A stretch of DNA of 64,000 nucleotides from contig CM097885.1 of the NCBI GenBank assembly GCA_044892525.1, positions 18,354,001-18,418,000 of the forward strand, written 5' to 3'. Source of the stretch: Schmidtea polychroa. Lineage: Eukaryota. Positions 8,715-43,051 of the stretch are shown here, one piece after another. Every line of letters starts with the position of its first letter. Positions within the stretch are counted from its first letter, which is position 1. The notes under the pieces are model-generated. The model searched no databases, was not told the DNA's origin, and saw nothing but the letters and a program-made list of their open reading frames with translations. A program made the position numbers and the translations under genes.

Positions 8715-10090
8715 ATTTATACCTATATTCTTTATTTATAATACAGATTTTTAAAACTAAGTTTTATGCAAAATTTATCTCATAATTAGAAATTATTATT
8801 TTTAGAAATATTTTAGCACGCCATAATAATTTTGTGACGGCAGAGTTAATTTTAATTTTTTCTCTACGCCATCATGCCTCATAAGTTTTTTGTGACGTCA
8901 TGATGACTATTATTATGCTCCACAATTTTTTAAGGCTAAAAGCCTATCTCTAAAATATGTTTCATTAATTTTTCTACCCTTTCTTGAATTCTATAATAAA
9001 TTAGAAAGTGCAACTACTAATTAATTTTTAGCTCACGGGTGAATATAATTGTTTTTTTATTATTTTTAAATTATAAGTGGTTTTTGTCAAAAGCAACAAC
9101 GTTTATTGATTTTTTTATATTATAGAAGATTTTATTCCAATCAAACAGGGGCATAATAAATTAGAAGATGTAACTGCTAATGAGTTTTCAGCACACATGT
9201 ATGTTTTTAATAATATACAAATGCGCAATTTTTCTTATTCAATTTATTTTAAGCTAGTTTTTTAGTGTCATATTGAATTTTAGTAATAATAATTTTTAAG
9301 TTGTTTGCAAATTAATTTTCATGCTTTTAATAAAATAATTTTTAAAAAATAATTTTTTTTATGTTTAAAAATAAATGAAATATGCGCATGAATTTTTCTT
9401 TTGACAAATAAAAAATTTACTAAATTAAAATAGTGTAAATTGATAATATAGCTAACGATGTGAAAAGAGCTTTTCAAATTAAATCGAATTGAGAATTCTC
9501 TAAATAAGTTGACAAAGGTTTGAAGACGCAAATTTTCAAAATATCTGTAATAGCATTCATTCACATTTAGGGAAATTTACCCAAAGAACTAAATCAAATA
9601 GCGGTCCTCATCCACATTTGATGTGAGACGATATAAAATCTTAAAAATTATTTTCCTTCATAATTAGTTCAAAATTCTCATAAAGTAGTAAAATTAAATT
9701 AAATTAAAAAATTAAAGTTTATTGAAACAATTCGTTCTGATAATAATTTTTAATATATTTGATAACGATTCCTTCGCCTTAGAATAGCTTGATACCCTGC
9801 CTGTCTATAATAAATGAGAATGATTAAATTTAATAGAATTAATCTTATCTTAGATCTTTTCAACTCTAGCCCTTGAGATTTCAACGATATCTTTTTCATG
9901 TCTGATTGGAAATTATGAAGCACAACGGGGTCAATAAAAATAAACAACAATATTAAGTTTATTAATTGATTAATTTAAATTAATTAGTAAGTTATTATTC
10001 CTCATTGGATCTATTATAAAACCTTAATAGAATATTCAAAATGAATATGCTTATTTCCCCATTGTGCTTCACCTTTCCTCCAAACTTGAA

Positions 10091-11550
10091 TCAGTTATTG
10101 TCCTCTGTCAAACAACTCTTGTCAAATATATAACTTTTCCTAAGTTTATATTTCTTCAATATTCCATTGTTGTAATAATATCTAGAAAGTAAATATGATT
10201 GAAATGGAAAAGGTAAACAAATGAAAACCTCAAATTTCTTGACATGGATTCGTAAGTCATAGTTTCATTGCCTTGAAATATTCCCCATAAAGCGGCAATC
10301 TTTTTAGTATTTTTGATGATGAAAGATCCTTCTTGTTCGTCTATCCACGCGACTCCCATGTCATGTTGTCTTGCACATTTATCTTTTAGAACAAATAAGA
10401 AGAATTGCCACATTTCCATCCGACATGAAATGTTGTCACGAACGTTCTCAATAATTTCTATTTGTTTTCTTGTTAACTCAAAATAAAATTTCGATTTTTT
10501 CGGAATGGGTCTCAAACTGATATCTTTTACTGATCTTGAAGGTTTTGAACATTTCCTGACGTCATTAGAGGAAGAGTCAGAAACTTTTTCATTATATCTA
10601 TTATTTTGTAACTTAAGATTGGAAGGTTGTAATTTTTGATGATTTATCAATTCCTTAGTTATGTAAGAATCTGCAGTCATGAATCCCGAGGACATATATC
10701 CACTATCATAATTCAGTTTTGGTAATTTATAATTATTATCATTATTATTTTCATTTCCATCAAAATGGCAATTATCAAAACTTCTTTTTTTGTCAGTAGA
10801 TAAAATCGAATTGTCTAATTCTTTCGGGTTGATTAGTCTATGAATTAGTTTTGGTTTTTTCTTCGTATGAATTTGATTTTGAATATTTACAAAATCATTA
10901 GGAGCAGATTCATATACATAATTTTCAGTCATATAACCAGACATATTATTTGCCATTGGTGTATATAAATGGGCGTTGGAATAATTTGGATAGTTACTGT
11001 TAGGTAGACTTATATATCCGGATGGGATTCCGAAAGGTTGGGGCATAAATTGTAGGTCATTGTTATTGTGACTGTTGAATAATTGATGATTGTTGTTTAT
11101 GTTCAATAAATTTTGATTCGAAATAAATTGGTTATTATTATTATTATTATAATCATTTTGCAATGAAGTATTATTGTTTATTCCAAATTTCGATTCATAT
11201 TGATTATAATTCTGATTGTAAGGATTATAAATAAAGTTATTAGACATTGATGGAGTCAATGGATCTTGAGGAAGAGGTTGATCGATTAATGGATTGAACT
11301 CTAAAATAACAATGAATAAAGTCAGTGAATTTTTAAATATTACCAGGTAAATCTTTAATGATTTCATCGAATACTAAAGAAATTAGAACATATAATTTAA
11401 ATGGTATACTTAATAAATTGCTTACGTTCATTGTCGGGCAAAAAGCTATCAGATTGATCTAAATTTAAATAAATTAAATAAAGTTAATTAAAATATTTAA
11501 TAATTACCTTTAAAAATCTCGTCGAACCAAGCTTGATCATCCTGGTTCAT
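10091..11550 (-). CDS. ETS-domain transcription factor (paralog 1), 5 exons
   Basis: Exons 11550-11508, 11458-11426, 11373-11344, 11300-10229, 10181-10091 with GT-AG introns of 43-52 nt keep the frame open. C-terminal MWQFFLFVLKD...W...F...IAALWG...MTYESMSRNLRYYY..GIL.K...Y.F matches the ETS consensus. N-terminus is acidic, then N/Q/P-rich. Confidence 0.9.
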
Positions 11551-12369
11551 TGTATCTGAATGATGGATGTTTCAATTAAATACTCATGATAGGATATATA
11601 ATCTCTTACCTAATACATTTCCAAATAAATCACAGTTACTTTGAAAATGATCTTTCTTGTTTAAATTATCGGTAATAATATTATTCTGAAACGATATATA
11701 AATTGAATATTATACAAATGATAAACTGACATTGTTTTGCATTTTAATCGTTTAGTTATTATTGAATTTGCGAATTCTTATATAGCAGAAATATTCAATA
11801 AAAATAAAGAATAGAAGGATTGAAATTTGAAAGGATTGGTTTTCCATTTTATTTGATATTGCAGCATAATACATTGAATTTCTTGTATAAATAGTTGTTT
11901 TATAAAATTGCTATCCATCTTGATTAATTTACAAATTAAATTCATAGATTTTGGTAGGCTTGATTTTAATATTCGACACTTTCTAACAGAAGTTTATCGT
12001 TATCATATTAAAAATATTGATTTTTAAAAATCTTTGATAACTCAAAATTGTCCTAGTAACAAATAATATGATGTCATATGAAATAACACTAATAAAATTT
12101 ATTGATTGTTATTCCGGTTAACGATATTCAGTAAAATTTGTCGTTCAATGTTATAAAGTAAAATCATAATAATTTATATGTGAATAATAAATATTTGATC
12201 TACATTATTTTTATTGAATATTGTTAAAATTTATCGTGTTTCCTGTTTGTAATTAATTTCTTTTTTTAATGTTACGCATTAATTTTATTATTTTCCAATG
12301 AGATTTCAATAAGTTAACTGAAACTAAATAAACATATGAGTTAAGATAATGATACTTTCCAAAGGCTGA

Positions 12370-13170
12370 TTTGATACGAAGTGAACCCGTTGTCCATTGT
12401 AATATTTCACCCTGTATGTAATATTGGCTCAATCAATCTTTTCACTATTGAATCGGATTTATTATCCTTTTTATATGGACCTTCCGGTTGTTTTCCGACT
12501 TAAACTTCCATTTTTGCAGTATAGTATACATCGGAATCCACCAGTGCGAATATTTTAATTCCATATTTTGCTGGTTTGTTTGGAATATATTGCTTTTAAC
12601 TACGTCAGCGAAAACTTTCCAGGAGTTCGTTCACCGTGGCAAACATGCCAATTTTATAAATATTTTCACATCGATTTGAAAAATAATCAGTTCTAGTTTG
12701 TCGATTTTTTTCCTTTCCTCTTGATCGACTTAATTATCAAATCGCAATGCTCTGGTTAGGATATAAAATCGATTATAGCGCATCGTAAATCTAAAACATT
12801 CTGGAGCTGTAACATCAGTATCCCAAAGATCTTCTACATTCGCACGAGAAGATTTTAGAACTCCTGCTATGTATAACAACCCAAATAAGGCCTTTATTTC
12901 ATTCAACGTCGTTGCCAATACGTCTCGCTCACGGCTGTATTTGCTCCTCATTTGGTCTAAACGACTGTTCGTGTGGTCGACAATTTCAGCGAGGATTTTA
13001 TTTGGCATTCTTGTGGGGATTTTGCGTTTTTTTCGAAAGAATTCACCCCGGGTTGGCTGGTAACAATATTCCATCTTCTTGTTCGTCCGCTCTTCGAAGG
13101 TGGATGAGCTCTACATACGTATTTTTTATATTTTCCATAAATTATGGGTTCGTTAGGGGATATATATGGG
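12370..13170 (-). mobile_element. piggyBac transposase remnant
   Basis: EIKALFGLLYIAG...EDLW...F..MRYNRF..LTRALRFDN, then KQYIPNKPAKYGIKIFALVD and NITMDNGFTS motifs. Stops and frameshifts; no termini found. Confidence 0.85.
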
Positions 13171-13321
13171 ATCTACAAGTGGGATTTATACACTTCCAGA
13201 CATATTTATCTTTTTGTATAGTGTTTTGTACCTCAGCAATTGTCAGTAAACAATAATTACAAATTACTGTACATAAAATTCCTTTTTGTCTAAAAATCGC
13301 AATTAAGTTCGCTGAACATTC

Positions 13322-14715
13322 TGTTGGTTACCTAGGGGAAAAAGAAGAATATTTACGCGCCCAGATAGAACGACCTAGATAACCTTCATGACTTATTAGT
13401 CATATCCCCTTATGTGTACCCGTGGTAATGTAACACGTTGGAGTTGTACACATAGGTCGGAATCTACCAGCAAGTGAGCTCCAATGGTAGAACTACTCCC
13501 GGTGGAATTCACAGTTCGGGTCCAAGAGTGCCGTAGAAGGACTTACCTCAATCCTTTACACAAACCGGCGTCCTGGTCTAAGGGACGTCTTTCATTTACT
13601 AGACCTCGATTATATCCATTCCCATGGACTCCAAACACAAGTTCAAATCAATCAAATAGAACTCGATAAATTCAACATCAATAAATTTTATTGGGTGACA
13701 TCAAAATATACAATAGATCACAAGTGAGTAAATCATCAAGAGTTAACTGGCAGAATGCACTCATGCATTTCATTTGGAAATGAGAATCTTTGAACAGGGA
13801 TTGATTTCATGTGACTTGGATAATAACGCATCAGATCATTTCGCGCTCGGCTAACAGGGCGTCGATATCCACCTGAAGCCGGGCATCTGCACACATGCGG
13901 GATATTTCGGTTGAGACTATTCGGAAGTTCTCCTTTGGAACAATTACTATTATCGTTGGAGCTTGCTCCTTGGAAAACTGAGCAGCGAACAGGGATGCTT
14001 CTGGTTTTTCTCGGCCCGCGATGGGCGTTTTCGCTTCTTGATAGATGAGACGGGATGGTTAGCATTAAAAGCAGGCATCGATGTAATAGTAGCTCCTGTA
14101 GGTTCCGTAGACGTTATTTACCTTGGAGGACCCTGATAGAATTGGATCTATTAAAGGTTGGAACTGGCTTCCATGTCCGCCACAACTGGACTTTAATAAT
14201 TGTGGTTCACCTTCTTGATGGTGTACAGGGAATACGTTGGTCCCATCTTTTATTGGGTATTCCCGAACTCCGCTGAATTTCCGCCTCTGAGTATACTTTA
14301 TGTAGAGCCTCAGACTGGGATTTTATTGTCAAACGTTGACATCGGCTTTCTTCTAGGAGGCTATCTCGACAGTGCTCCAGCCGCAATATCTTAGTCCTCT
14401 CCTCCTTCATTTGCGAAGGGGAGAACCATGTGCATTCATAGCATTCGATCCGTTTTTTCAACGCCCCATTATACTCTTGTAGTTTCTTTATGTCTGCGTT
14501 TTTGTCAGCGCAGGAGTAGCATGTTTGAAGACCTTTTGGGGGCAGATTTGGCTCGCACATTCTAAAGATGAAGTTTTTAAGAGAATTCATTGTAGTATTG
14601 TAACGCAACTAGTCGCCAAAGAGTTGGGGTTGTTTATCATTTACGCCTTCCCTTCCATCATCCTACATTATTACTCGCAACATTTGTTGTATTGTTGGTC
14701 GTTAGAATCCTGATT
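13322..14715. mobile_element. GC-richer insertion, possibly an LTR-retroelement remnant with a minus-strand ORF fragment
   Basis: Abrupt composition shift; starts with TG at 13322 and has AATAAA near 13680. Unrecognised Cys-containing, coiled-coil-like ORF at 14207-14608 (-). Family not identified. Confidence 0.3.
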
Positions 14716-14971
14716 CTACGGGCGAAGATTTGATCAATGTGAATTTTTAGATAATTTTTCGTTGTCATTTTACTTTATTTGAATGTTTCGTATGAAATAT
14801 AAAGCTTTGGATTATTACCAACAGAATGTATTGTTGATTTTATTGTGAAAATTCGAAAATATCAGATAGGGATAGGTAGGTAATCATAGAATTATGTATG
14901 AATATCTTATTATTAAAATTATTCGAATTGAAGATTAATTATTTGAAAATTTCTACTGTTTATCTTATGTA

Positions 14972-15324
14972 CAGTCATACCCCGGATAACGTTGCCCCGA
15001 ATAAAGTTGTTTCACTGTAACGTCGGTCCACCATTATAGTCATACCCCACTGTAACGTTGCATGGCTTCGCTGTAACGTTTTTTTTTAATAAAACCGTTT
15101 TTTCAAAAACTAAGCAAGCGGTGTTATTTTAAAATCTTTTTTTATATATTACATATTCTAATAAAGAATTAAATCTAATTTTCATAATATCAAAATTCTC
15201 TTAATCTTTTAAATCTATTTAATTGCGAATTTTTTTCTTAATTATAATTGCTTCGTATAACGTTGTTTCGGTTAACATCGCGTTTTTCTGGAACCATTTA
15301 ACAACGTTAACCGGGGTAAGACTG
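14972..15324. mobile_element. pogo/Tigger-type MITE
   Basis: TIR CAGTCATACCCCGGATAACGTTG / CAACGTTAACCGGGGTAAGACTG flanked by TA; internal subterminal AACGTT repeats. Confidence 0.85.
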
Positions 15325-17503
15325 TATAATGTTCGCGTTGGTCGTATAATTGTCATTATGTCAATTAACTGATCTCTATAAACTATCTCCATACTAATCG
15401 AGATTTTATCGTTTCATCGGTGAATTGGCATTACTTCATTGATATCGTCACTGGTTCCATGAAGTGAAAAGGCATAAGTTCAATTGAAACGAAATAATAT
15501 AAAAAATTTTTAATGTGGAACTAACTTAGTGGCCGCCTTATATAGTAATTTTTAACCAATCATAATTAAGTCGGGTTGTTTTTTGGTTATTTTTCTTTAT
15601 TCTTTATTATTTTATTGTTTTTCTTATGTATTATTTTGTTTTATTTTGTTATTTTATTGTTTTATTAGTTTTCTTGTATTTTGCGTAATTTCGCCTATTT
15701 TTGTTGGTTTTTGGGCGTGTAACGGCCTATTTTCAGTTTTTCTTTTAATTTTAATTAGTATTTCGTATTTTTATTTATGTTTTCCTATTTTCTTGTTTGG
15801 GTTATATTTTCTTATTCCTCATATTTTATTATTTTGTATTCTTATTTTATTTATTACTAAATTTAATTATTTTATTTACTTTTTCTTTCCTGTTTTTTCT
15901 TCCTCCATTCAGTTCTCAGCCATTAACCGCCCAACAACTATTTTTTTGTTCAGCCCAACAGATCCTACATTAATTTTAAAATTAGATTTCTAAAAACAGA
16001 CATTAATAATAGGGTTTAAGCAAAAAGATTTATTTGATAAATTTGTGAAAAAATCAGTTAATTTTTTAGTTGATCCAAAATTTATAATGTTACAATGTAT
16101 ATTTTAAAAAAAATGTTCAAAATCCCCCCCCCCCCAGTGGGGATAATTTGAAGATGATCCAAAAATTGTTTTTCTAGAATTTCCCAGGACTTGTGTATTA
16201 CTCTAATAAGTTGTTCTAAAGTTTAGAATCTAAACCAAAGTTTTATATAGAACAACATGAACCTAATAGTTTTTTGCATTAAATTAACAGTTTTCTTGGA
16301 AAATTGTGCGTTTTAAAACATACTTTTTGAAAATTTATCTACTTTTCTACTTTTTCTCAAATTGCCCATTCAATTTCCAGCATTATTCATAATTGTTATT
16401 GTTATTTAGGGTTATAAAATGATGATTTGTCAAAAATATGATAAAAAAACTTCTGTGAACTGTAAACTCAAATACATAAGTTTGCGTTATATAGGATAGC
16501 CTAGTGTACACCTATGTCAAATTTCGTATCGATTAGTCACTCCGTTTGTCTTGTCTAATTAAACAAAAATGTTATAATTTCTATATGAAAATATGCAGTT
16601 TCAATCTCCCTTTAATGGAAAGAGAACGTTTTAGTCATGATAATATAAGAAATAAGAGAATTTTATTTTTCTATTGCTCTAAATTCTGTTACTAGGTGCT
16701 TTAATTTTTCCTTAACTGCCGTTTTGACTTATAGTCTAAGCAAGGATCGCAATTACCATTAAGATGAACACCGTGTTTCAGCTTTTACATAATTATCCTT
16801 GGAATGGTTGGCTTTCTTCGCGGATACTGAACGTCCGCTTTTCTTCCATAGATCAGTTTACTTGTGTTCTCGAATAATGTTGTCATTACCTTTTCGGGAA
16901 ACAGAGTATTCTAGTTTTGCCTACCGGCCTCACTCATACTCTTTTACGTCAGAATACTAGGAGTAGATAAACTACCGGATATTTAAACTGTTGTGTGTAT
17001 CTATTGCAAACTGTTTAGATCATTTATTAAAAATAGTAAATGAAAACATTTCAATCATTTTTTGCAAGTTTTTTGTAATCTTTAGAAACACAAAAAACAT
17101 GTTGAAAAAATTTTTTAATCATTAATTATTTGGAAAATTTACTATAGTTGTGAATAAGATTCATTGAAAATATATTGTTGAAGAATATTAATTTTTAATT
17201 AATTTACTTTGATTTGAGAAATTCGGAAATTTTTATCTAAGTTATTTAAATTTGTGATTTGTAGTTTATTGGAAGTTAGAGAATCTGAAAAATTTCGAAT
17301 TTAGTTTAATTTAATAAAGTTTTGTGAGATCTCAATTTATTATTTGAGTATTTTATATTTAAATTATTTTTGAATACTTGAAACGATGGATATAATTAAT
17401 ACAAGCAACGGTGAAGTTCTGGAAAATTCAGCCAAATTTTCTTCCAAATTTAAATTTAAAGTTAAATTCGAATGTCTTGAAAGCTCAGAAGATGATTTGG
17501 AAT

Positions 17504-17580
17504 GAAAATTAATTCATGTCAGCAGCGCCTCTAATGCAGATTTAGATCAAGTCCTTAATATTTGGACCAATTCCTGTTGG
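17504..17580. repeat. 77-bp direct repeat, left flank of viral insertion
   Basis: Identical by eye to 20121-20197 (GAAAATTAATTCATGTCAGCAGC...CCAATTCCTGTTGG). Confidence 0.95.
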
Positions 17581-20062
17581 GTTGTAGACTTCGCTTTCAT
17601 TGATTGTGCTCGCCGGGCCTTTAGCAGAGTACCCAAGGACAGTCACCTTTACGCCTATATTTGCAATTAACTTCAGTCGAGAATATTCGTAGGTAAACTC
17701 CAAATCAGTAGGAGTGTGAGAGTATGTTGTGATGTTGATGTCGAATACTATCGGAGCAAAGCCTTCCCTTCTGCTCCACTTTTGGCAATTTTCGAGATCT
17801 AAATAAATGGAGCCTAATGTTCTACTATTTAATTTAGTGCGACCCAATTCCTTACAAAGTTCACATAAAGGCTTTTGAACTTTCACTAAGCTTTTAAGAT
17901 CCCTCACAGTTATATATGTCAGAAATTCATCTAACATTCTTATCTCGACCTGTTCACGGTTGATGCTGCCTTTCCACAGACCAGGCCCAGTGTAAATTCC
18001 CTTGCAGTAGCGCTGTCTAATAATGAACCCGCCGATAGTACAGCTTTGAGAATTCTCTAACAACTCTATTGAGCATGGTTTTCCAGAAGCAAATCTAGTA
18101 AAAATGTAGAGAATCCTGGATCCCTCGTCTAAATCAAGTATAAAATGAGTCTCTTCCTGCATGTCGTCTCTTATTAATTGGAAATAGTCCTTGAATATTA
18201 GCAGAACTGTTTGTTTTGATCCGCCGTCAGGGCACTTAGATAATCTCCACAATTTAGTTTTGAGTGATAAAAATGATTTATCATTTTCAGCCTTTTCAGA
18301 ATATCTTGTAGTCAAACTTTGTTGTAAAGAAAATCTTGGCCAATAGCAGTTGACGGCTGCTTCGGAAACAGTGCCAAAAACAGTACTGCATTTTCTAATT
18401 GGCCCAGTGATTTCTATGCATCTGCTTTTTGAAATGATGGACGATAAGAAGGAGTGTAGGCTGAATGCATTTGGGAACGGGCTTTTCTGAATCGTCTCCT
18501 CAAATGTCTCAGACAGCCAAGGGAATAATAGCTGATATTTTGAAAAAGCAGCAGCTTTCAAGAGTTTCCCACCTTGTATTGGTAGATGAAACCACTTTTC
18601 TTTGCACAATGCTAACAGTGGAAAGTTGGAAACCACTGCCTCTCTTAGGACTCGAACTGCCACAAACTTGTTCCTCAATCTGTCTGAAGAGACTAGAGTT
18701 CTCTGAGAGAGTTCAAAATTAAAGCGGATCAAACTTTTGAAAAACACTCTCTCAGGGAACAAAATCTTCATCCAGTGAAGAGATTGTCATAGGGAATTCC
18801 TTAATGAGATCTCCTAGATCCTCCTCTTCTGATGAGTCGTCATCTATCTCTCCGAGCCAGGCGTCACAATCCTCATCTAGCTCGCACATGTCAAAGTCTT
18901 CAGAGACATTCTGCGCTTTGGAATAATCCAACAAGCTTAAATTCTCGGTTTTTTGCACGTTTTCAATCTTGGTGCCAATTTCTTCATATAGGCTCGCAAA
19001 CCCTTTCATTGCTAGCAGTTTCTTCACCTCTGTTTTCGACCATTGAGGGTATTTCCTTACGACTGCTCTGCTCTCATTCACACTAAGATGGTGATTGCAT
19101 ATAACGCTCCATTCAAGCAGCTTGAAGCCTGGCTGAGGTTTTATTCCAGGGTTGTAGACTTCGCTTTCATTGATTGTGCTCGCCGGGCCTTTAGCAGAGT
19201 ACCCAAGGACAGTCACCTTTACGCCTATATTTGCAATTAACTTCAGTCGAGAATATTCGTAGGTAAACTCCAAATCAGTAGGAGTGTGAGAGTATGTTGT
19301 GATGTTGATGTCGAATACTATCGGAGCAAAGCCTTCCCTTCTGCTCCACTTTTGGCAATTTTCGAGATCTAAATAAATGGAGCCTAATGTTCTACTATTT
19401 GATTTAGTGCGACCCAATTCCTTACAAAGTTCACATAAAGGCTTTTGAACTTTCACTAAGCTTTTAAGATCCCTCACAGTTATATATGTTAGAAATTCAT
19501 CTAACATTCTCCACCTCTAACATTAACCACCTCTATGTTGTGATGTTGATGTCGAATACTATCGGAGCAAAGCCTTCCCTTCTGCTCCACTTTTGGCAAT
19601 TTTCGAGATCTAAATAAATGGAGCCTAATGTTCTACTATTTGATTTAGTGCGACCCAATTCCTTACAAAGTTCACATAAAGGCTTTTGAACTTTCACTAA
19701 GCTTTTAAGATCCCTCACAGTTATATATGTCAGAAATTCATCTAACATTCTTATCTCGACCTGTTCACGGTTGATGCTGCCTTTCCACAGACCAGGCCCA
19801 GTGTAAATTCCCTTGCAGTAGCGCTGTCTAATAATGAACCCGCCGATAGTACAGCTTTGAGAATTCTCTAACAACTCTATTGAGCATGGTTTTCCAGAAG
19901 CAAATCTAGTAAAAATGTAGAGAATCCTGGATCCCTCGTCTAAATCAAGTATAAAATGAGTCTCTTCCTGCATGTCGTCTCTTATTAATTGGAAATAGTC
20001 CTTGAATATTAGCAGAACTGTTTGTTTTGATACGCGGTCAGGGCACTTAGATAATCTCCACA
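17581..20062 (-). other. Endogenous viral element: C-terminal part of a Phenuiviridae/Bunyavirales-like L protein (RdRp), rearranged as three overlapping segments
   Basis: Intronless and GC-richer than its flanks. Motifs KEKWF...FPWLSETFEETIQKSPF...SKSRCIEITG and IGGFIIRQ...YTGPGLWKGSINREQVEI...LCELCKELG parallel phlebovirus L as I recall it (SDKWF...WLEDT...SKPRTVRITG; IGGF..PQ...YKGKGVWTGVMEDTHVQI...LCDDLG, cap-binding region). Segments A 17581-~18771, B ~18752-19510, C 19534-20062. Confidence 0.85.
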
Positions 20063-20120
20063 TAGAAATAATTGATTCTGGAATTATTTTTTCACGATTC
20101 ATGTATAAGATTTTGTATAA

Positions 20121-20197
20121 GAAAATTAATTCATGTCAGCAGCGCCTCTAATGCAGATTTAGATCAAGTCCTTAATATTTGGACCAATTCCTGTTGG
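20121..20197. repeat. 77-bp direct repeat, right flank of viral insertion
   Basis: Identical by eye to 17504-17580. Confidence 0.95.
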
Positions 20198-20431
20198 TCG
20201 TCATGATTTTGTTCTTGATATTCCCTCTTGATGATAGTATCGGTGTAACTGGAAACAATTCATAAAAATCAACAATTAGTTCGAATCGATTATTTTGTCA
20301 GCAATGAATATGAAAAAGAAGAAATGAATTTTGTTCATTTTGTACAAAATTTTACTTCTACCGAAACATATCGTAGCAGACCGTGGTTCCTTTTGGGGGG
20401 GCACAATAAAATTTCAAAGGTATAAAATTCA

Positions 20432-20832
20432 TTAAAAGATTATTTAAACGTTAAAGAGTTTAACAAGTCAATCAATCCTGATAGAGATGTAGCTTATGGT
20501 GCTGTTGTTCAGGCTGCTATCTTATCTGTAGACATGAGTGACGTTGTTAAATATTCATTGTTGTTTGATGTTGCTCCATTAATATTGCATATTGAAACCA
20601 CTGGAGGAGTCATGCCAGCTCTTATTAAGAGAAATTCTACCATTCCAACAAAACAAGCTCAAACTTTTTCAACATACGCTGATAACCAACAAGGTGTCTT
20701 GATTCAAGTTTTTGAAGGTGAAAGAGTCATGACTACAGACAACAATCTAACTTGGTAAATTCGAATTGTCGGGAATGCCACCTGCTTTAAAAGGTGTTCC
20801 TCAAATTGAAGTCACATTCGATATCGATGCCA
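20432..20832 (+). pseudogene. HSP70 internal fragment (pseudogene)
   Basis: [21 protein letters not shown]...[34 protein letters not shown]...[11 protein letters not shown]. Frameshift near 20750; truncated at both ends; conserved residues eroded. Confidence 0.92.
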
Positions 20833-22439
20833 GTTTATCGATGGGCCAATCAGCAAAAAATCAGATAGCAGGTATGATTGCAATTTGTCACGATCTGATT
20901 TTTAAAAATTCTAAAATTCATTATAATAATATAATTTGGGATAAGGTATCAATTTTGTCATTTAACCGCACCTTATATATCACAATAAATAAACAATTCC
21001 TTGAAGCATGAAATATTCATATGGATGGGTGCAATAGCAAATGTTTACGTTATTGCAATGTGAACTGTACAATTATAATAAAATATATATATATAATTCA
21101 ACTATTAAATACAATTATAAGTACAATTATAATAAAATATATATATAATTCAACTATTAAAAGTGAATTATTAATAAATATTTAAAATGTAAAGTATATA
21201 ATTGATTTAATAACTGTGATTAGAAATCGGCGACGGATATGCCATTTGTAGGGGTCTCGAAGGTGACTCTTTGTAATTTGATATATAAATACATACATTT
21301 AAACAAAATTTAAAATAAGAAGGTCTAGATCAGGGTCATAACGATTTTCGCAAGCAATCATTAAAATTATGGTAATAAAAATTAATTTTATGAGTAATGG
21401 GTAATAGGCCCAACGTAAAGGGCCTAGGAGGTTACCAAGGGATATCCTACCCCCTTTAAATCAGCAGATATTCCTGAAAACATTGAATGGAAATGTTGTC
21501 ACGCTTGATTTATCCCTTCGCTTATCTCCTGTATAAACTCTGTTCTAAATCAAATGAACTAAAATAGATTAAAAAAATTATTAACCTCCAGTTAAACCAA
21601 CAATAATAAAAAACTTCAAATTTACAAAAATTCGTGCAGAAAATAAATGGAATTTTATTTTTAATTTTTGGAAAATTCTGGTAGATTATCGATCTTGGTT
21701 TTATCGTTTCCGTCGTATCTTGAGCTGTGTTCGATTGACTTTCGGTTTGATTCTTTTCTTCTCTGGTTTTCATCTCTGCTTTAGTCTTGAGGTCTCATTA
21801 TTTGAGATTCTCAACTTACTTGTTCTTATATAAATTATCAAATAACAATAAGGCCTGGTTATAAACATTTAATAAAAAATATTCACCTAAAAGAAATGAC
21901 ATGCTTTTACTTTTTGATATCGGATAGGTGCGTGTTATATATTTGTGTGTATGACAGTTGATGCTTGTTATATTATGTATGCAAAAAAAATTGTGATATA
22001 AAAGTCAACTAAAATTCTTTTAAATTTTATGCTGTCGTAGTTTGAAAACTTTTGAAGGATTTCCTTCAAAGTTTTTTAGCAAGGATAAGACTTTATTTTA
22101 TGGGGAGATTAACTGATTTTTGCGCGCTTATTTATATGAGATTTTATTTAATGAATATTAAATATTATTATTTCCGGCTTATACGCACGGGATATTTAAC
22201 TAATTTTTCACCAATGTTTTTAAGATTTTCTTATTATACACTATATTAATTAATTATATATACGTTGTTCGTTCAATAATGCATCGGACTAACTAAGAAA
22301 GAAAAAACACAAAAAACTGAAACAAATTTTATCAAATACTAGTTCGAAAAACACATTTAATTATTTTTCTATATAATTACCATTGGCAACAACCGATTTA
22401 TTCCATCGAATAACCAAATCTTGAAATACATCAGCAAAC

Positions 22440-22670
22440 ATGTCTCACGTTGCGTAATTTTTTGATTGGAAATTTCAGTTGGTCTACCAACATAGGAATA
22501 ATCTTGGTTCACACTTTCATGGCCATGCTTGAATAATGATATCCAACGATATATTGTGTATCTAGAAGGACATTTGTTGCCATATGTAATTGCCATATCA
22601 CGAAATATTTTATCAGACGACTTCTTTAAAAGCACAAAGAATTTTATTACTTCTGTATTCCACCTCATCC
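22440..22670 (-). mobile_element. mariner transposase N-terminal HTH remnant
   Basis: VIKFFVLLKKS...IFRDMAITYG..CPSRYTIYRWISLFKHGHESVNQD...GRPT is a mariner-type HTH; the rest is missing. Confidence 0.8.
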
Positions 22671-24481
22671 ATTTGACAAAAAAAATGGAATTAGAAGTAC
22701 TTACGTCAGCCAATCAGATTATTTAATTTATGCATCTAAACAAGCATACATGTAAATGCTAAAACCAATTGGTAATATATAATTTCGATTGTAGAATTTG
22801 ATTGACTTGGGTTTCATTGAATCTTCTCTTGGGCTAAAATCACTTGTTAGGAGAAAAGCACTTATGGGACTGCCACTGTCATATAACATTAGTTTATTGT
22901 AATTTATCCTTATTTTCCTTAATGTAAACTCCAAGTTTCGTTGAGATGGATTGGATTGTATAGAGTCTGGTTGTGTTACGAGAGAATTAATGTGGGTTAA
23001 ATCGTTTGCTGAATTTCTCGGTAGCTTATGCTTCGAATTAACTTTTTCTGTGGTTCTTTCTTTTTTTGTGTTTTAGAGTTCTAGAGAGTTTTGTGGTTTT
23101 CCTTTTGTCTGTTTCTGTGCTGCTTTCTGATTGTTGTTTTTTGGTCGGTTGTTTTTAGTTGTGTTACTTTGGGTATTTATATCCTTTGGTTTATCTCAGG
23201 TAGGACCTTACGCTATCTGAGTTTTCATTGAAATTTCTTGCGGGTGTCTAGTCTCACCCTCGTTAATTATTGTACAGCTTTAGGTCGGTGCTGTTGAATC
23301 AGCACCTACTTTTTTGAACTAAAATTTGTTGAATTTGTTACTATGTTGAAATTTTTCAAAATATAATTTTCTAGGTTTTTTGTATGCCGTTTTCCTTGAC
23401 TTCCTTTCCTAATTTATATTTTTCGTATTTTTTTGTTTAAATGAAGTAATTTAATTATGTTTTTTGCAAAACACTTGGAACACGAAAATAAGTTTTATTA
23501 TTTCTATAATTATACAATAACAATTATTTATTGAACAAGTATTAGGTAATAAACAAAGAAAGCAAGATATAATATCAAATATATATAAAAAATGCAATTA
23601 AAATTTAAAATGTTCACGTTTCAAATACTTGTATTGTAGTTTTGTGAGAATTTGTGTATTCTGACCTTGGAATAAGCACGATTCATCCAGTCGTTCGTAG
23701 AAACGATGTTTCATATCATTTACATCGGTTAATTAATATTGTATTAATATTGACCAAAATTATCCTAGTTTGACGTAAAATTTCTCAAATTGCCCATTCA
23801 ATTTCCAGCATTATTCATAATTGTTATTGTTATTTAGGGTTATGTTCTGAACTTGACTATATAAAAATAACTATCTTGTTCGTCGATTGCTTTGCATGTT
23901 TTGCAGAAGATTTGTAAGAGCCCAGCAGAGCCTCCTTTAAAACTTTAAATTGTACGGCTGCAAAAGAATAATTTTATAAATTATTATAAACTTTTTTTTT
24001 CAAATTTCACCACTGATTTCTTTTCCATTGAAATTGTATATAAACATCATGTTATTACAAATTCTTTTTCAAAACTTGGTTATATACAATATGTTTAATA
24101 CATCGTGTGACGTTAAAAAGTTGAAAATAGCAAAGCCTATACAGAAATTTCATGTGCTAGAATATCAGGTTGCCATTGTTTATTACAGTCAAACAAACAC
24201 ATTTGTTCTGTTTGATACTAGATCAGGGATTACCAACACGTCGATTGCCGAGCAAGTTTTGTTCGATCTCAAAGTATTTGAAAGTTATGTGATTTCTTAA
24301 TTTCTTTTTACTTGGTAGATCAGTATTTTTTTAAAATGCCATAGTCTATCGCAAGTTTAAACAAGTTGGCCACCCCGCTATAGATTATAAAAACAAATTG
24401 TAATCAACCTGAATTGTGTTGTGCGAAATATGAGCCAAATGAGCATGAAAAAACATGAAATTATAGAATTTATTTAAAAAA

Positions 24482-26238
24482 TTAATCATGGGACAATAAA
24501 TGCAGTGGAACTTTGAATTCGGAAATAATTGATTCTGGAATTAATTTTTCACGATTCATGTATAAGATTTTGTAGGTAGCTGCAATAGTTGATTCTGATA
24601 CACCCATAATATCTCGAATTTCTAAATATTATGATTTTAAAAACGTTAAATTTTTGAAAATATTACGTTTTTTTGAAATTTTCTCGTTCATAAGTAAGCC
24701 TGCCATATATATAGACGCTGATATCAAACTACTTGGTTTCTTCTCTGAAAATATTTTCGATGCATTTGCAATGCATATTGCTAGTTTTTCAAGAGATTTA
24801 TTTTTAATTTGCAACTGGTAACAGAATCGAGGAACTTGGTCAATAATATTTGATGACTCACAAGCCAATCCAAGAGCAACTCGCACTTTTTTTATCATTT
24901 TTTGAATATGCTTTAAATCTACTGCTGACACATCACAAATTTCTTAAAATTAAATATGATTAATAAATATTATATATAAAATTCTCTATAAAGATTTCTA
25001 TTTCATATAAGGTTAGTTACTCATAATTAATAAAGTATGTGAAAATAATGATTTGGCGACGCTTCATCACGCGACATTTCCTCAATTAAAAACTGAAATT
25101 TAATATTTTTACTGAAAAAAATAAGATTTTATATAAATTTAAAATTTGTTTTAAATTGTGTTTTCAAATTAATATTTTCGATAATTTCTATAATTTTAAG
25201 AAATTACTAAAAATTAAGTATAATTTTAATTAATTTGTTGAAAACGCAAATATAAAGGTTTATTTTTTGGTAATGATTAACCTTAATCCGTTTAGTTTCA
25301 AATTTGATTCCTTTTAGATTCAAATTATTCTACAAATAGCTTATATGAATGCGATTGAACTATTAAAATAATTTGAGATTAGCTATTTATATGTCAAATA
25401 ACGGAGTTTGATTTTTTTTATGTTATAAGCGAACAGTGATTGTTTTAATTCAATATTCTTTAATTATGTATGATAATAGTCATTATTTTTATTCCGAATG
25501 ATTTTTTATTAAACATTTTTTATGTTCTATTTTTCATTTTATATGTAAGTGCGATATATGCTATGTATTATATTTAGAAATATAAAGATCAGACCTTTTA
25601 CACTTCTTTCTATATTTCTATTTCGACAAACAAGAAATAAACAAGCACAAGATATTTCGTCTTTTTTCTTTCTTGTAAATCCTTTTATTTGAGTCAATTT
25701 TTTAACATATTCCATTGCAGCTAACTGAAATATATAATAACAGAATTAAAATAATTCATGTGAAAAATAACCTTTGTATTGTTATCTACTTTAATCCTCT
25801 CCCCAAAAGCCAATATGGAGGCCCTGCATTGTCTAATCATTCGGTCAGCTGGAGTGTCTACAACTCTATTTTTATATCGTTGTTCTCCATTTTCGTTTAA
25901 ATGTTTCACATCATATGACTGCTTAATAGTAATAGATGTTGCACTATTTGAACTGATGGCATTTTCAACTGCTCCAACTCGAGATTGATCTTCACCTGTA
26001 CCATCATTTGCAAATGATCGCCATTCACTTGAAAAATCAATGACCCTTCAAAAAAAGAGTTTATAATTATTTTGATTAATTTTATTACCTATCACCAACA
26101 ACCAATCCACAGGTTGAACAAATAAGATCTCCAGCTGAATAATCCTCTATTAAAACGGAATTAGGATGGTATTTACAAGCGAGTTTACTTAATAAAAATT
26201 TAAATTACTTAAAATTTTTTAATAATAACTAACATCAT
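24482..26238 (-). CDS. Transcription initiation factor IIB-like protein (divergent), 6 exons
   Basis: Exons 26238-26234, 26187-26089, 26045-25772, 25724-25595, 24942-24667, 24621-24482, all GT-AG with an open frame. Zn ribbon CKYHP...[24 protein letters not shown]-reader SEWRSFAND...SRVG, two cyclin repeats (CACLFLVCR...RSVKEIC; PRFCYQL...SASIYMA...[12 protein letters not shown]). Confidence 0.92.
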
Positions 26239-27019
26239 TGGAAAGTTTTAATTATATATTTTAATATGAAATAAAAACAAATTTTTAAAAAATTTCTTTC
26301 ATTTTGGTACAACATTAATTATTTCGTATTACTCTTAATAAAATTATTTTTAGACTTAGTTTTTGAAAAATAGAATGCGATTGTAATATTTACTTTTTCG
26401 ATTTTTTTCAATATAATTTTAGTATAAAATCGATTTTGATATTATAAATCTTAGATAATATGATTTTTATACACTCAACATTGTTGAAAACTTGAAAAGA
26501 ATTGAAATTTTAAATTTAAAAAATGTAATTAAAATTTACTGTAAATAAAAAAATAAATAATTCAGAGCTTTTTAATTTTAATTAATTCAGGTAATTAATT
26601 AATATAAATTAGTCCATTTGCCAAATTTAAACAATTAAATTATGAATATAAAATAGGATAAGTTAATTTAAAATAATTAATATTTAAAATATTAAAAAAA
26701 TTGTATTTTTAAATTTTAAAATTTATGACTAATGTGTAGTTTTCAGGTTTTTAAGTAAAATAAAATTATTCTACACTGCCTATGTTGTAAAATTGTGTTC
26801 ATTATTTCAACATCTAAGCTGTCAAGTTATTTAATATTTGATTTAGAATTAGAATACCATAATATACTACAGTAAATTATTTTTCCATATTTACATTATC
26901 TTATCAAATTTAAATATTTTTAATAGAATTCCTTGAATTTGTGAAATACATAAATTACACCCCTATCCAAAAATGTTGTTTAGATTTTTAAAAAAACATT
27001 GAGTATTATCGGTTGAAGT

Positions 27020-27149
27020 TAGGGTTGCTACATGTTGAGAGGCTCAAAGTAGGACAAACCAATAACCAAATTCTCTTTCATGCAGTATCTAGGACAAATA
27101 TCCAAATTGTAGGACTGTCCTACCGAAAGTAGGACGTGTGGCAACTCTA
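27020..27149. mobile_element. Small hAT-like MITE (partial second copy at ~27544-27604)
   Basis: Imperfect TIR TAGGGTTGCTACA / TGTGGCAACTCTA; internal GTAGGAC repeats; degraded TSD. Confidence 0.65.
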
Positions 27150-30129
27150 CTTGAGGATCATTACATTTTTGGAGCCATTTGTACTCCTGTAGCCAGCTAT
27201 CATTAAAATAACATTTCCTTTTTTTGTTGTAATGTTCATTTTAGCAGTATAGTTGTATTTTAAAATTTTTAATGATATTCTAAATAATATTTAAAATAAT
27301 TTCAATTCTTTATTTAATACTTAATATTAAAAATACTTAATTTTAACAAATCTTTATTTAAACTGATTTTATAAAAAGAAATAAAATCAAATACATACAA
27401 ACATGCTTAAAAAAATTTTCAGAACTTTTTAAAATATTTTAATCTGATGCCCTTGCTTTGAATTTTAACGAGAAAAATATTTTTCTCGTTAAAATTTTTT
27501 TTGTTAAATATAAAGGGAAAATGGTTAAAAGTGAGGTAAATAGTTCAAAGTAGGACAATTTCTCTTTCATGTTGTACGTAGGACTAATATCCAAATTGTA
27601 GGACCGAATTCGTGAAATCTACTTAAACTTGCATTCTATTTCCATAATTTTTCCAAACTGACTTCAAAAAGTGTTTTTCAAAGTGTGTTTACCACCGCTT
27701 GTACATTGGTGGGCATGATTTAAATACAATTTATGTAAAGTAGTCGATTAATGTTAAAGGGTTAAATAATGTCTACCTCAAATTATTGTATACTAAAAAA
27801 ATATTCAAAAAATAATATACGTAATTAACAATAAAAAAATGCCGGTCCATATGTTAGAAATACGATTTTGCAAAGCGGTCTTCAACGTGTTAAATACTAA
27901 TTTTCATATTGATTAATGTCTTAAACTTAATATTTAATCCTATCAATACCGTGAAAATATATAAATCCTTGCCACAATCTGGCCATTTACAATATTTTTG
28001 CTGATACCTCGAAAATAGGAATTCAACAATTTATTGGTAAAATAGTTGGTAGTAGTTTAATTTTTTTGAAGTATATACAAATAGAATTTAATACTTTTAG
28101 AAACTATTGACTATTAAAAGATATTTCTTTATTAATAAAATGGCCTAATTTCACAATTCTATTCGTTCATTTGAAAAATTAATTTTACTTGATTTAATTG
28201 TTATAACGGTTTTTCTACATTTTAAGAAAACAAATTATTTTATTTAACAAAATTACAAAAACAAATTTAGTTTTTTCATAATTTATTATTTATAATGCTC
28301 ATTTCTAAAATTATACTTGCCCAATAATTTTCAATAATTTCTTTTGTTTAGGTAAATAAAAATAGAAACTTACCTAGTCAGTATGAAAATTAATTTGAAT
28401 TCGTGAACTCTACTTAAACTTGCATTCTATTTTCATAATTTTTCCAAACTGACTTCAAAAAGTGTTTTACTAATGGGTTGCTTACAGTTACATTCGGGAC
28501 TTTTCTAACTTTTTGTTTATTTTCTGTCGTATCAAAAGTTTAAAATAACTAATCCATCTTTCCTTTTGAATTCTTCTGATTTCTTAGTATTTCTTAGTGA
28601 TGATCTCGAATCGTCTTGCATCAGGTAAGCACTATAATCAGGATAAATTTTCTGTATACAAATGTAACCAACTATATCGTGACCATTTTAATTGTAATGC
28701 AGTATAAAAATCACGACTGGCATTGAAACTCAGGATGGCACCTTCGTTCGTATTTTCAGTGAAACTGCGTGATCAATCGTGACTCTAACAATGTAAGGAC
28801 TCGGTAATAGCCTTTCCAATTTACTATAACTAATCGAGACCGAGATACATAACTTCATTTCATCTTAATCGATTCCTGGCCATATAAAGTTCACGGTAGC
28901 TTCACTAAATAATAAAAAAAGATTTACCGGGGATGGCGATGATGATGCCAATTACGGAGTGGTACCGTCGATGATGTAAACTCAATCGATGGACCGTATA
29001 GCCAACTCAAATCTGAGTGTATGCCATGATTGATAGTCCTCAGTGTTACAAGTAAAATTTCGTTAAAAACCAGTAATAATAGTGACGATCAATAAAAATT
29101 ATGTTATCGACAATAATGGTCGAGACGATTTACTGTACAAAAATAAGGTCAAATTAGTTAGTGGCATACGACACCAGTAGAATGACCACTCGCTTGCAGA
29201 TCAATTGCCGTATGGGAGATGATACGTGGCACTAATCAACATTCTCCACACAATTAATCGTGGAACAAAAAATAGTGAACTGCGAGATCGCACAACGAGG
29301 CTAATATAATTACAGATGGATAACACCAGAGATAATTTTTTGGTTAATTCGACAATTTTAATGGCTCACCATGGCTCACAAATGGCTCATATGAAGGCGT
29401 CCTAAAAATTTTACTAAGTATTTTTGATAGCGTATATATGGTACTACAAAAAAATTTCTAAGAAAAATCTGAAGTGGTACTAACAAAATAAATAATAATG
29501 AACAAATCAAAACCAAATGAAGTCTGAATCAAGGTTTTATTTACATCAACTATATTAATAATATTATTATTATTATCTTTAAAATAATTTAAATTTCCAA
29601 TATTCGTTACAGTTACCATGACTTTGTGGCAAAATTTTGAATTTGAAATGTTTATTTTTTTAATTAATTAATTTACTTAAATTTTTATCTACATAAATCA
29701 ATATTTTTTGAGTGAAACTTTCTATAAGCTCTTCATAAAATCAATTCTAATTCGGTTTTTTAATTTTCGACATGTAAAATCAAATTTTCATTAGATACAA
29801 AACACATGGTATCGGGATTGCAATATTTCCCAAGTATAATTTTATTATCTTCCCAGTAGTGCTAAAATTACTTTTTAATAATTATTATCTACAAAGTTAT
29901 ATTTAAAAATGGTGTACTGGTGGTAAAATTTTGACAACGTGATTTCAAAAATTTCAAATTAAAAATTTTATTTTGATAATATTTTAAAATTCAAAGATGA
30001 TTGTAAATTCTATCCTCTATTTTGTGGTACTTATAGAATTTAGTGACCAGTAAGATAACATTAATTTTGTGAACGTAAATGAGCATTAACAATACAATGA
30101 TTTTGAAATGAATTAATTAAATCAAAGTA

Positions 30130-31424: not shown

Positions 31425-33110
<1,686 letters not shown>

Positions 33111-39849: not shown

Positions 39850-40452
39850 ATGGAACTAAGAAATGATGCTGTTTATTAAATAGTCGGACCAAGTGGTAGT
39901 GGAAAAACTTTGTTTGTTTGCAAATTACTAAAATCACATTTATTCAAATCAAAATTTAACAAAATTTATTGGCATAGAGGTGCTGATGAAGAACACGGAT
40001 TAACTCACGATAATTTCTGTAAATTAAAAAATATGAAAATAGTAAAGCGATTTGATAAAAAGTGGTATAGTAGACCAAAGAAGGGAGATGTCATAATTAT
40101 TGATGATTTGTATAAAGAAGCTAATAAAGAAAAGAATTTCAATAATTTATTTACCAAAATCAGTAGACACGTGGGTGTAACGGTTATTTTTAAAACTCAA
40201 AATTTATTTCTTCAGGGCGGTGCACATAGAGCTCGTAATTTAAATGTTCAATATTTCGTTGTTTTTAAAAACCCTAGAGATGCAACAGTTATTAATTTTC
40301 TTGCAAAACATAATCGTAATTTTCTGATAAATGCTACAAAACAACCTCATGGATATATATTTCTTGATTTCACTCAACAGTGTCCTGATGATTTACGAGT
40401 GAGAACCGATATTTTCAATAAAGAATGGTCAATGGTTTATAAACAAAGTTGA
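39850..40452 (+). pseudogene. A32/FtsK-like packaging ATPase
   Basis: Walker A GPSGSGKT, Walker B IIIDDL, SRH and QNLF...RNLNVQY..VFKNPRD motifs; premature TAA at 39877. Confidence 0.9.
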
Positions 40453-40579
40453 AACCATGTTTAACTGATTATGTTTTTGAGAGCGAGAGTTAAAAATTTT
40501 GGAAAAGGTACTGAAAAAGAAAAAGTTAAAGTTCCACCAAAAACGAGTTACACATATTTGTTACAGAAAATTTCCATCA

Positions 40580-40990
40580 ATGAATTTCATCTCAAAAAAT
40601 CCAATACCTAAACCAATCAAAAACCTTAAACAAGTAAAAACAGTAAAAAATCATCGTAGTTTTCCGTTTTTTAATGCATTGTTAAAGGCACCGAGCATGA
40701 AAAGAATGACTATTTTACACTAATTTCCTAATATCGTTTTTGGTGATTTACTTGATATTATACTCAAAATAGTCAAAGGCAAGACTATAATTAGCAAATC
40801 TGACAAAATTATTTTAAACAAGTACCAGAAACCTCTTTTGATGCTAGTAAATAATAAAAATCGCAAACAAATGAGAAAAATTATATATAAACAACAAGGA
40901 GGGTTTCTTGCTGCATTAATAGCATTGGCATTATCATTATTAGTGGCATTATCATTATTAGGTCTATTAAAATCATCATAAACAATAGGT
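40580..40990 (+). pseudogene. pX-like core protein remnant
   Basis: Basic ORF pieces ending KQQGGFLAALIALALSLL, resembling the adenain-cleaved GGFLPAL motif of adenovirus pX; frameshifted. Confidence 0.55.
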
Positions 40991-41042
40991 GCTAATCCTT
41001 CATTACCTAATTTAAAATTTGATTTTAAATATTCATGTTGTA

Positions 41043-42060
41043 ATGGAGAAGATATGGACGAACCCAAAAGACGAAGCAGGTTTTGGTGGAGTCGAAAAGT
41101 TAAAGAAAAGAGTTCTGAATTCGAAGATGGAAACCCAGAATTGGTTATCAAGTCAGCTCGCATACAGTTTGAACAAGCCGATGCTGAAAAGATTTCCAAC
41201 AAGACCATATAAAACATTTGGTATTGATGATTCATGGCAAATGGATTTGATGGAAATGATAACATATTCAAAGATTAATAAAGGATACAGGATATTTTGA
41301 CATGCATTGATGTTTACAGTCGTTTTGCTCGAGCAATTCCTACCAAGGCAAAGTCTGCCGAAGAAATATCCAAAGCAATTAAACTCATGTTTAGAGATGG
41401 ATATCCAGAAAACTTACAAACAAATTTGGGTAAAATATTTGTAAAAATTCATTATTTTTCTTTTGGATAGGAATTTTACAACTGTAAAATGAAACAAATC
41501 CTGGATAAACTCAAATCAATCATTACTCTGTGCATTCTCAATTCAAAGCCGATCATGTTGAAATATTTAATCGAAAATTGAGAGATAAGCTGAAAAAAAT
41601 GTTTGTGCATCAAGGTAATAAGACATGGATAAATGCTTTGCCTAAAATTATATATGGTTATAATCATTCATCGCATCAAAGTTTGAATGATTTACAGTTT
41701 TCGAAAATGGCTGAAAAAATTAAAAAACTAAAATATAAAATCGGTTATCATGTTAGAATTAGTAGAATTAATGCATCTCCATTCATAAACATCTTTCATA
41801 CAAACTGAAGTGATGAAGTCTTTGTAATCTCGAAAAACAATACTAAACAATATCCAGTAATATATGTCATTAAAGACTGATCAAAATATTGTACAAGGGA
41901 AATTTTATGAACAAGAATTCCAAGTCATTCCTTCAGCAAAAGTTTTTAGAATTCAAAAAATATTGAAAACTACAAAGAATGGTGAGGATAAACAATACTA
42001 TGTCAAATGCCATAGATATCAAAACCCGACATGGATATGAGCAAAAGATTTAGTAAAGTA
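41043..42060 (+). pseudogene. Retroviral-like (c-integrase) with C-terminal chromodomain
   Basis: WQMDLMEM...CIDVYSRFARAIP...LQTNLGK/EFYN...VEIFNRKLRDKL...YNHSSH...QYYVK; several frameshifts and stops. Confidence 0.9.
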
Positions 42061-43050
42061 AATTTTTATACTCTTTTACCGAGTAATAGTTGTCCTCTTA
42101 TTCATCCAGATAATGAAGCAAGTAAATTTATGGTAGAACTACAAAATCCAATTTATTTACATGGTGAGTGGGAAGCGGCTTTATTGGATTTCACATTTGT
42201 GTACAAGACATTTCCATTCTACAGTAAATCCAGAATCGAATACAAAAAGAAGGAAACAGTTACAAAATATAAAAATTTGGTAATTGATAACGTAAATGAT
42301 TTTATTGATATATCAAATCCTTACGATCGAGATGTTACAATGTACATTGATCGAGATTTTCTTTAATTTAACTGTCATCATACTCCATTTCATGTATCAT
42401 TTTAATATTTGGCGAATGCAAAACGATTCGAAATAAAGACATTGAGATAAAGAGCGATACAGATATATTGAAGATACGGAATCCTGGATTTACCAAGGTT
42501 GGTGCGACTACAGAACCAATTAGGCTAACAGTACAGTTTCCGTTTGATATATCTAATACAGTTACATTTAATGACAATTTATAGAACCGAACTCGATGAA
42601 TTGCAAACATATTTAATTCAAAATTGTATATATATTTTCAAATCTCTAGAACTTCAAGAAAATAAATATTTCAGATTCTCTTTGAATAATGACATTTCTG
42701 AAATTAGCTTTGACAAAAACCTGATAAAAACATTATGATTACCTAAAGCAAAATATCAACAAGACGATAAAATTAATGAAGGATCGAGTATTTAAACTTA
42801 ATCATCAAATGTTCATCTATACTAATATTATTGAACCCATAATTGTTGGTGATTCCGCGGTTCTTCTATTGAAATCTATTTGGATTGAGAAACATGAGCA
42901 AGATGATGTTGTACAAATAATAATGGAAAATCCTATGTATTTACAAGTTTCAACCTCGTGTATAAACAATATAGAAACGATAATTCTGGTAAATTAATCG
43001 ATTTTGCACAAGATTCAAAAACTCATTTGACGATACATTTTCGTAAAGTC
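42061..43050 (+). pseudogene. Minor capsid (penton-like) protein
   Basis: FYTLLPSNSC...PDN..SKF.VELQNPIYLHGEWEAAL at the N-terminus and MFIYTNIIEPIIVGD...LLKSI...PMYLQV at the C-terminus; frameshifted. Confidence 0.75.
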
Positions 43051-43051
43051 G

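Follow-up and report, generated by a model that had tools for sequence, protein, structure and literature searches.

A 2,540-nt insert in the window (the whole 64,000-nt stretch of DNA that was analysed) consists of three overlapping, out-of-order pieces of a bunyavirus L gene, followed by a short filler that is largely a copy of part of a neighbouring host gene. The insert lies between two identical copies of a 77-nt host sequence. We lean towards a single error-prone repair of a germ-line DNA break, with repeated template switching on viral DNA made beforehand, as the origin of this arrangement. No sign of a function was found for the insert, which is most likely an inert relic that might at best give rise to antisense small RNA.

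Layout of the insert and its target

Self-comparison of the window confirmed the perfect direct repeat that the earlier note had described: the 77-mers at 17504-17580 and 20121-20197 are identical, with 0 mismatches, and 2,540 nt lie between them. The parts of the insert, its target and the donor of its filler are as follows.

17386..17580, + strand: left part of a broken copy of the ASF1 histone-chaperone gene (Pfam ASF1, E 2.4e-6)
17504..17580, + strand: left copy of the 77-nt target duplication (self-comparison)
17581..18768, - strand: viral piece A, C-terminal region of bunyavirus L (aa 1473-1874 of the nearest relative; 396 stop-free codons)
18760..18775, no strand: A/B junction (approximate), where the outermost ends of the captured viral interval are joined and the reading frames overlap
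18764..19510, - strand: viral piece B (aa 1754-1996 of the nearest relative; 248 stop-free codons)
19511..19533, + strand: 23-nt patchwork insertion between B and C, lying within 2.2 repeats of a 16-nt unit (19500-19535)
19534..20062, - strand: viral piece C (aa 1645-1817 of the nearest relative; 176 stop-free codons)
20063..20120, + strand: 58-nt filler, made of 2 nt, a 53-nt host copy and 3 nt that complete a 9-nt slipped repeat into the right 77-mer
20121..20197, + strand: right copy of the 77-nt target duplication (self-comparison)
20121..20330, + strand: remainder of the broken ASF1 copy, covering aa 41-75 approximately and after that model positions 100-123 (Pfam E 0.011)
24522..24574, - strand: source of the 53-nt host copy, in the final exon of a multi-exon TFIIB gene (24485-26192)

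On the + strand, A and B (17581-19510) are thus followed by the 23 nt, C and the filler. A and C share 529 nt (17723-18251 and 19534-20062; 3 mismatches), A and B share 362 nt (17579-17940 and 19149-19510; 2 mismatches), and B and C share 218 nt (1 mismatch). The 218-nt core was located at three sites (17723-17940, 19293-19510 and 19534-19751), which bears out the claim that a core running from MLDEF to INITT is present three times. Five junctions and a core in triplicate represent the several template switches and the copy gain to triplication that characterize complex templated insertions. The GC content is 40% in the viral part and 28-30% in the flanks.

Self-comparison found no inverted piece in the insert and neither a terminal inverted repeat nor any other terminal repeats. 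The insert is without poly(A), the longest A or T runs near its two ends being 4 and 6 nt (4 on the side of the 3' end). None of the frames scanned has a reverse-transcriptase match in Pfam, and no retroelement sequence adjoins the insert, in keeping with the earlier observation that no LTR, poly(A) or retroelement abuts it. No Rfam family was found in 10000-30000.

The target is one member of a multicopy ASF1-like family, of which 19-26 differing contigs per run cover position 17486. The left part corresponds to aa 1-58 of a solved ASF1 (E 7e-12, with the stop read as X) and carries a stop at codon 40 and a frame break inside the 77-mer. In the right part, the second 77-mer takes the gene up again near residue 41; the match over aa 58-75 is weak alone (E 0.12). 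A word-index protein search recovered ASF1 in 0 of 5 candidates. Because the ASF1 reading order needs the 77-mer only once, the duplication is assigned to the insertion, the ASF1 order serving here in place of an empty allele. Other members of the family differ by 5-13 letters per 72-145 nt, and the two 77-mers are identical. In the ASF1 order, host sequence is retained to the base on both sides of the insert, so that host DNA flanks the viral sequence as in non-retroviral EVEs, the left junction being supported indirectly.

The surroundings of the target have several features of their own. The ASF1 copy (17386-20330) has no intron in the part seen, and an internal fragment of HSP70 (20426-20830) lies within about 100 nt downstream; the two are perhaps a mosaic of host gene pieces, possibly carried there by a mobile element. 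Two identical 63-nt stretches in direct orientation (16353-16415 and 23781-23843, 7.4 kb apart) represent either a further case of local templated copying or a long duplication that flanks an older insertion with ASF1, HSP70 and mariner pieces. At 16814-16881 a contig in two runs of a second study (X5 and X6) has 25 other letters in place of 66 nt and represents either another allele or a repeat copy.

The captured viral sequence

The coordinates of the viral pieces refer to the L protein of the nearest virus, which has 2,077 residues. A search of 1.84 billion representatives returned 131 protein matches to piece A at E<=0.001, and Bunya_RdRp is carried by five of the six top matches scanned, as expected for an origin from a non-retroviral virus. 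The named matches are a phenuivirus L and the Tricladiphe virus L protein (DAZ87940.1), which is the best match (E 1.2e-50, identity about 30-33%). PMC9241645 lists Tricladiphe virus as a member of the Bunyavirales, family unassigned, from the freshwater triclad Procotyla fluviatilis; by inference from this match, the host of the insert would be a triclad flatworm. In a tree of 24 rows (piece A and 23 of its 131 matches), piece A is sister to Tricladiphe virus L with support of 100/99, both branches being long and most of the rows unnamed. Since identity to this protein is only about 30%, the source appears to be a distinct virus, and the insert preserves a trace of a bunyavirus lineage that has not been sampled and probably infects a flatworm. 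Compared with Tricladiphe virus L, the insert holds aa 1473-1996 only, and the polymerase core is absent. The viral pieces themselves gave no Pfam match (0 of 3), a word-index protein search with piece A found nothing among 3,168 candidates, and none of the pattern matches in viral contigs (9) or metagenome contigs (135) was a close viral relative.

The aa ranges on the nearest virus protein agree with the order C, B, A that had been proposed for the viral sense. They do not agree with the proposal that EDFVP in piece B is the end of L: homology breaks off near aa 1996 of the 2077, at the point where B gives way to A and the frame changes.

Across A, B and C there are 6 differing sites in 1,109 compared nt (3/529, 2/362 and 1/218). 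The viral amino acid is changed at three of four variant sites, a small number that suggests copying errors or drift rather than viral variants. Two of the three differences between C and A are 26 and 30 nt from the right junction of C, where error-prone synthesis would place them. At position 17831, B and C have a base in common against A. A perfect 77-mer is expected at this level of copy divergence (P 0.66), and all parts can therefore share one age. The insertion is young, with copies about 0.5% apart and intact frames.

Junctions, local templates and contig support

Host and A share 2 nt (17579-17580), and between B and C the 23 inserted nt are followed by a 2-nt overlap with C. Two extra nt separate C from the copied host piece, and 3 extra nt between this piece and the right 77-mer complete a 9-nt repeat of the filler. 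That slipped repeat is equalled by 145 of 8,695 host 40-mers, its end point having been picked post hoc. Exact microhomology, which the earlier note had proposed tabulating, thus amounts to 0-2 nt at the measurable junctions (A/B excluded). Extended imperfect or gapped microhomology was not significant at the four junctions tested (p 0.05-1.0).

The B/C junction was compared with two null models of 20,000 each. The chance of a 9-mer matching the flanks is 0.012 and 0.020 under the two nulls, that of an internal 9-mer repeat is 0.00015 and 0.001, and both features occurred together in 0 of 20,000. Construction of this junction from local copies, as proposed earlier, therefore holds beyond chance. 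However, the two features named in that proposal are a single 16-nt unit present 2.2 times, and 5 of the patchwork bases have no convincing local template; a 6-nt match of these new bases at 18569 is no better than expected by chance. Flank-templated, iterated insertions of this kind are one mark of polymerase-theta end joining.

The insert is not wholly viral. Within the filler, 52 of 53 nt are identical to host positions 24522-24574 on the same strand, 4,457 nt away, and this TFIIB-derived piece had been overlooked. A reading of the filler as further viral sequence in frame with C is ruled out by the match to the TFIIB exon. The donor gene has a Pfam TFIIB match and four collinear blocks that are 67-98% identical to full-length TFIIB; its single in-frame stop sits in a short stretch with GT-AG ends that, judged by sequence, is most likely an intron. 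The 53-nt piece lies within one exon; its start is 37 nt away from where the reading frame ends and does not coincide with a mature 3' end. A piece from nearby chromosomal sequence is a further characteristic of complex templated insertions, judged here within one window. The TFIIB gene is the sole such gene in the window, and the best fit for this one window is that the insertion reaction would have copied a local (cis) template, unless the TFIIB gene is multicopy.

Other near-identical short copies a few kb apart occur in the window, and copying from nearby templates may be widespread in this genome. Direct copies within 0.8 kb are found at 27606-27677 and 28397-28468 (72 nt, 97%) and at 27067-27115 and 27556-27604 (49 nt, 88%). 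A broken Helitron-like element with PIF1 helicase frames occupies 46847-50877, and about 100 nt of a Helitron-like frame (48061-48161) recur 6-8 kb away at 54200-54252 and 56713-56766. The recurring stretch is split by a hAT-type element (54453-56414), its left half being 89% and its right half 100% identical. The window also contains transposase relics of piggyBac type, mariner type and a second hAT-like type (12730-13110, 22372-22713 and 51761-53653, respectively), and an inverted repeat pair (59608-59834 and 61148-61350) that is 75% alike and about 1.3 kb apart. A fragment of an A32-like packaging ATPase with neighbouring frames (39880-44001) resembles a decayed Maverick/Polinton; a capsid gene may be among these frames, though without a Pfam match. 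Two ETS-domain genes (10156-11373 and 31439-32757) have long asparagine-rich frames and are 68% alike in the ETS part.

Short-read contigs of two runs (X1 and X2), from two samples of one study, were compared over 16400-19148. Three of the five insert junctions are reproduced directly by short-read contigs, the runs of which may be the assembly's own source. At the A/B junction, a 988-nt contig of X1 and a 1268-nt contig of X2 each span the join. The B/C joint occurs in an X2 contig with all 23 letters identical, and an X1 contig runs from the end of C into the 77-mer. In both runs contigs begin at 17579, contigs break exactly at 17579, 17723 and 17940, and one X2 contig is exactly the 218-nt core. 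No contig bridging the left junction was found among the 32 of 621 pieces listed. Most words of the insert are present in four runs of three samples, and none of the runs listed that carry it is an RNA run. In X5 and X6 the left flank is covered and most of the viral part is without cover, with no contig joining across the viral part among those listed; this coverage says nothing on absence or polymorphism of the insert. The contigs speak against mis-assembly, and they are not independent carriers, as the runs may be the assembly source.

Routes of insertion and comparison with known systems

Since the viral genome is RNA, reverse transcription must have taken place at some point. In the break-repair account, viral L RNA would have been converted by a reverse transcriptase elsewhere into extrachromosomal DNA of at least 1.57 kb, perhaps circular or head-to-tail. 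A broken end at 17580 would then have primed on this DNA at the 2 nt of microhomology found there, and about 1,930 nt (A, then B) would have been copied, crossing once from one template end to the other. Fall-off, slippage and re-priming would have left the 16-nt patchwork before 529 nt were copied again as C. A switch to the chromosome 4.5 kb away would have added 53 nt of the TFIIB gene, and after a further slip the new end may have rejoined the target 77 nt upstream of its departure point, thereby duplicating the 77-mer. Joining to the filled-in other end of a staggered break would likewise duplicate the 77-mer, and the order of events could be read from the other end too. The long tracts would fit strand-invasion synthesis (abortive SDSA or MMBIR) and the short scars theta-type end joining. 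Polymerase theta is known for short templated insertions, and pieces of 0.5-1.9 kb need longer synthesis. The single event, the nature of the templates, the enzymes and the shape of the break belong to our reconstruction from parts, sources and junction sequences that are observed.

Several features argue for DNA-break repair. The TFIIB copy, the slipped junction repeats and the microhomology of 0-2 nt make it the best fit, and the re-copied overlapping stretches together with the long duplication speak for DNA-templated repair. Together, A and B correspond to 1.23 lengths of a 1,570-nt unit, which is what copying round a circle would produce; however, the joint between the outermost ends arises by chance 27% of the time. 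Components of the proposed course are described in earlier work: in worms, patchwork insertions that arise when primer and template are switched repeatedly, and tandem duplications that result when SDSA fails and theta closes the break (PMC8654963); triplication with templated insertions as marks of FoSTeS/MMBIR in human complex insertions (PMC5120786); small fill-in duplications at breaks with 3' overhangs (PMC8355091); and, in mosquitoes, episomal viral DNA made by retroelement reverse transcriptase (PMC5497376). The earlier note had proposed theta-type repair of a staggered break. Of this proposal, a duplication made at insertion (from the ASF1 order), repeated switching and the lack of an integrase signature stand, and the neighbour-gene copy that it had missed strengthens the repair reading. 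Staggering and theta are putative; a switch back 77 nt upstream gives an equal product. Against DNA repair, all four pieces have one orientation, for which random strand choice at three switches gives 1 in 8. We hold break repair, which draws on this one locus, to be somewhat probable.

The main rival is target-primed reverse transcription with template jumps, and not integrase as the earlier note had posed. On this view, synthesis primed at 17580 would have been carried out by a reverse transcriptase of non-LTR or Penelope type, or else by a repair polymerase that uses RNA templates. The enzyme would have started on viral L RNA and then moved to other viral RNA fragments in two jumps and to a transcript of the neighbouring TFIIB gene in a third; a second nick 77 nt away would account for the duplication. 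On the + strand all four pieces are antisense to their mRNAs, as this course predicts. Bunyavirus mRNAs are not known to be polyadenylated, so the missing poly(A) carries little weight against target-primed reverse transcription, and the absence of a 3' poly(A) or simple-repeat tail, which a LINE retrocopy would have, is a weak test where the viral mRNA is tailless. PMC2987831 reports that a clean target duplication is the usual sign of LINE-made RNA-virus insertions in mammals. Non-LTR reverse transcriptases need little pairing to move from one template to another, and they also add bases that have no template (PMC8857657), although the same paper doubts that jumping matters in cells. According to PMC2718515, junctions of non-LTR elements have microhomology and additional bases, as well as 16-27-nt copies of local target sequence; the R1/R2 duplications given there are 2-17 nt, far under the perfect 77-nt target-site duplication found here. 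Moreover, a free host mRNA would rarely be that of the next-door gene, the TFIIB piece starts inside the last exon and not at a mature 3' end, no retroelement sequence adjoins the insert, and the repeated 16-nt unit requires re-copying of newly made sequence. We regard this rival as serious but unlikely. In an improbable variant, break repair would have used RNA itself as the template for the whole insert, without any retroelement: a polymerase of the host's repair machinery that can reverse-transcribe would have copied L RNA three times and then the nascent TFIIB transcript. Reverse-transcriptase activity has been reported for polymerase theta, and the shared mRNA orientation of the four pieces together with theta-like scars fits RNA-templated repair. 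If true, such repair would be a direct route to heritable viral insertions, and long target duplications with local gene snippets would be its genome-wide signature.

A course in several steps, with a simple viral insertion and its 77-nt duplication first and the repeats and patchwork later by local tandem duplication and deletion, has a small probability. The B/C region resembles a 218-nt tandem duplication with a templated junction, a form known in worms (PMC8654963, in part), B and C share the base at 17831, and passages on mosquitoes propose duplication of viral inserts after insertion (PMC5497376, PMC8048955). However, two duplications and two deletions would have to end exactly at the duplicated host ends, the TFIIB piece is left unexplained, and the pairwise differences give no sign of differing ages. 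Least probable, and by a wide measure doubtful, are an assembly artefact, insertion by an integrase or transposase, and a repeat predating the virus. The runs with the insert belong to one study, the left junction is unbridged among the contig pieces listed, and the multicopy nature of the ASF1 family would suit an artefact or an older repeat. Yet contigs end at 17579, 17723 and 17940, the B/C and C/77-mer joints are present in contigs, and ASF1 needs the 77-mer once, its two copies being identical whereas family members differ. Integrases and transposases typically leave duplications of 2-10 nt and terminal repeats; a short fixed duplication with LTRs or terminal inverted repeats is not what was found here.

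Non-retroviral EVEs, including bunyaviral ones, are known from passages of PMC2987831, PMC5497376 and PMC8048955, and like the present insert they consist of a fragment of one viral gene with host flanks in a repeat-rich region. According to PMC2987831, in part, mammalian EVEs have a short duplication and poly(A), and insect EVEs have neither. The insert described here differs in its 77-nt duplication, its three overlapping out-of-order copies and the co-captured piece of a neighbouring host gene. Most RNA-virus insertions in invertebrates are old or without clear ends (PMC2987831, in part), and the passages of PMC8048955 concerned do not treat the junction mechanism. The entry of RNA viruses into invertebrate genomes is poorly resolved, and here every junction but one is readable to the base.

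FoSTeS-MMBIR complex insertions and chromoanasynthesis, as described in passages of PMC5120786, share with this insert triplication, short microhomology, nearby templated pieces and duplication of the insertion site. In contrast, the main template here is non-chromosomal RNA-virus sequence, the product is 2.5 kb rather than kb to Mb in size, and there is no inverted piece. Theta insertions in C. elegans (PMC8654963) and fill-in at 3' overhangs (PMC8355091) are also alike, with repeated flank copies and a target duplicated around the scar; those cases come from repair mutants or induced breaks and are without kilobase foreign DNA. No description of an EVE that is also a complex templated insertion with a co-captured neighbouring exon was found in open-licence papers and preprints. 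A viral insertion tied to a repair-type scar and a neighbouring-gene copy provides a concrete signature that can be counted across the genome, and it indicates sloppy DNA-break repair as one route of RNA viruses into animal genomes. RNA-virus EVEs and complex templated insertions were each already known separately, and the present insert is an EVE built like a complex templated insertion.
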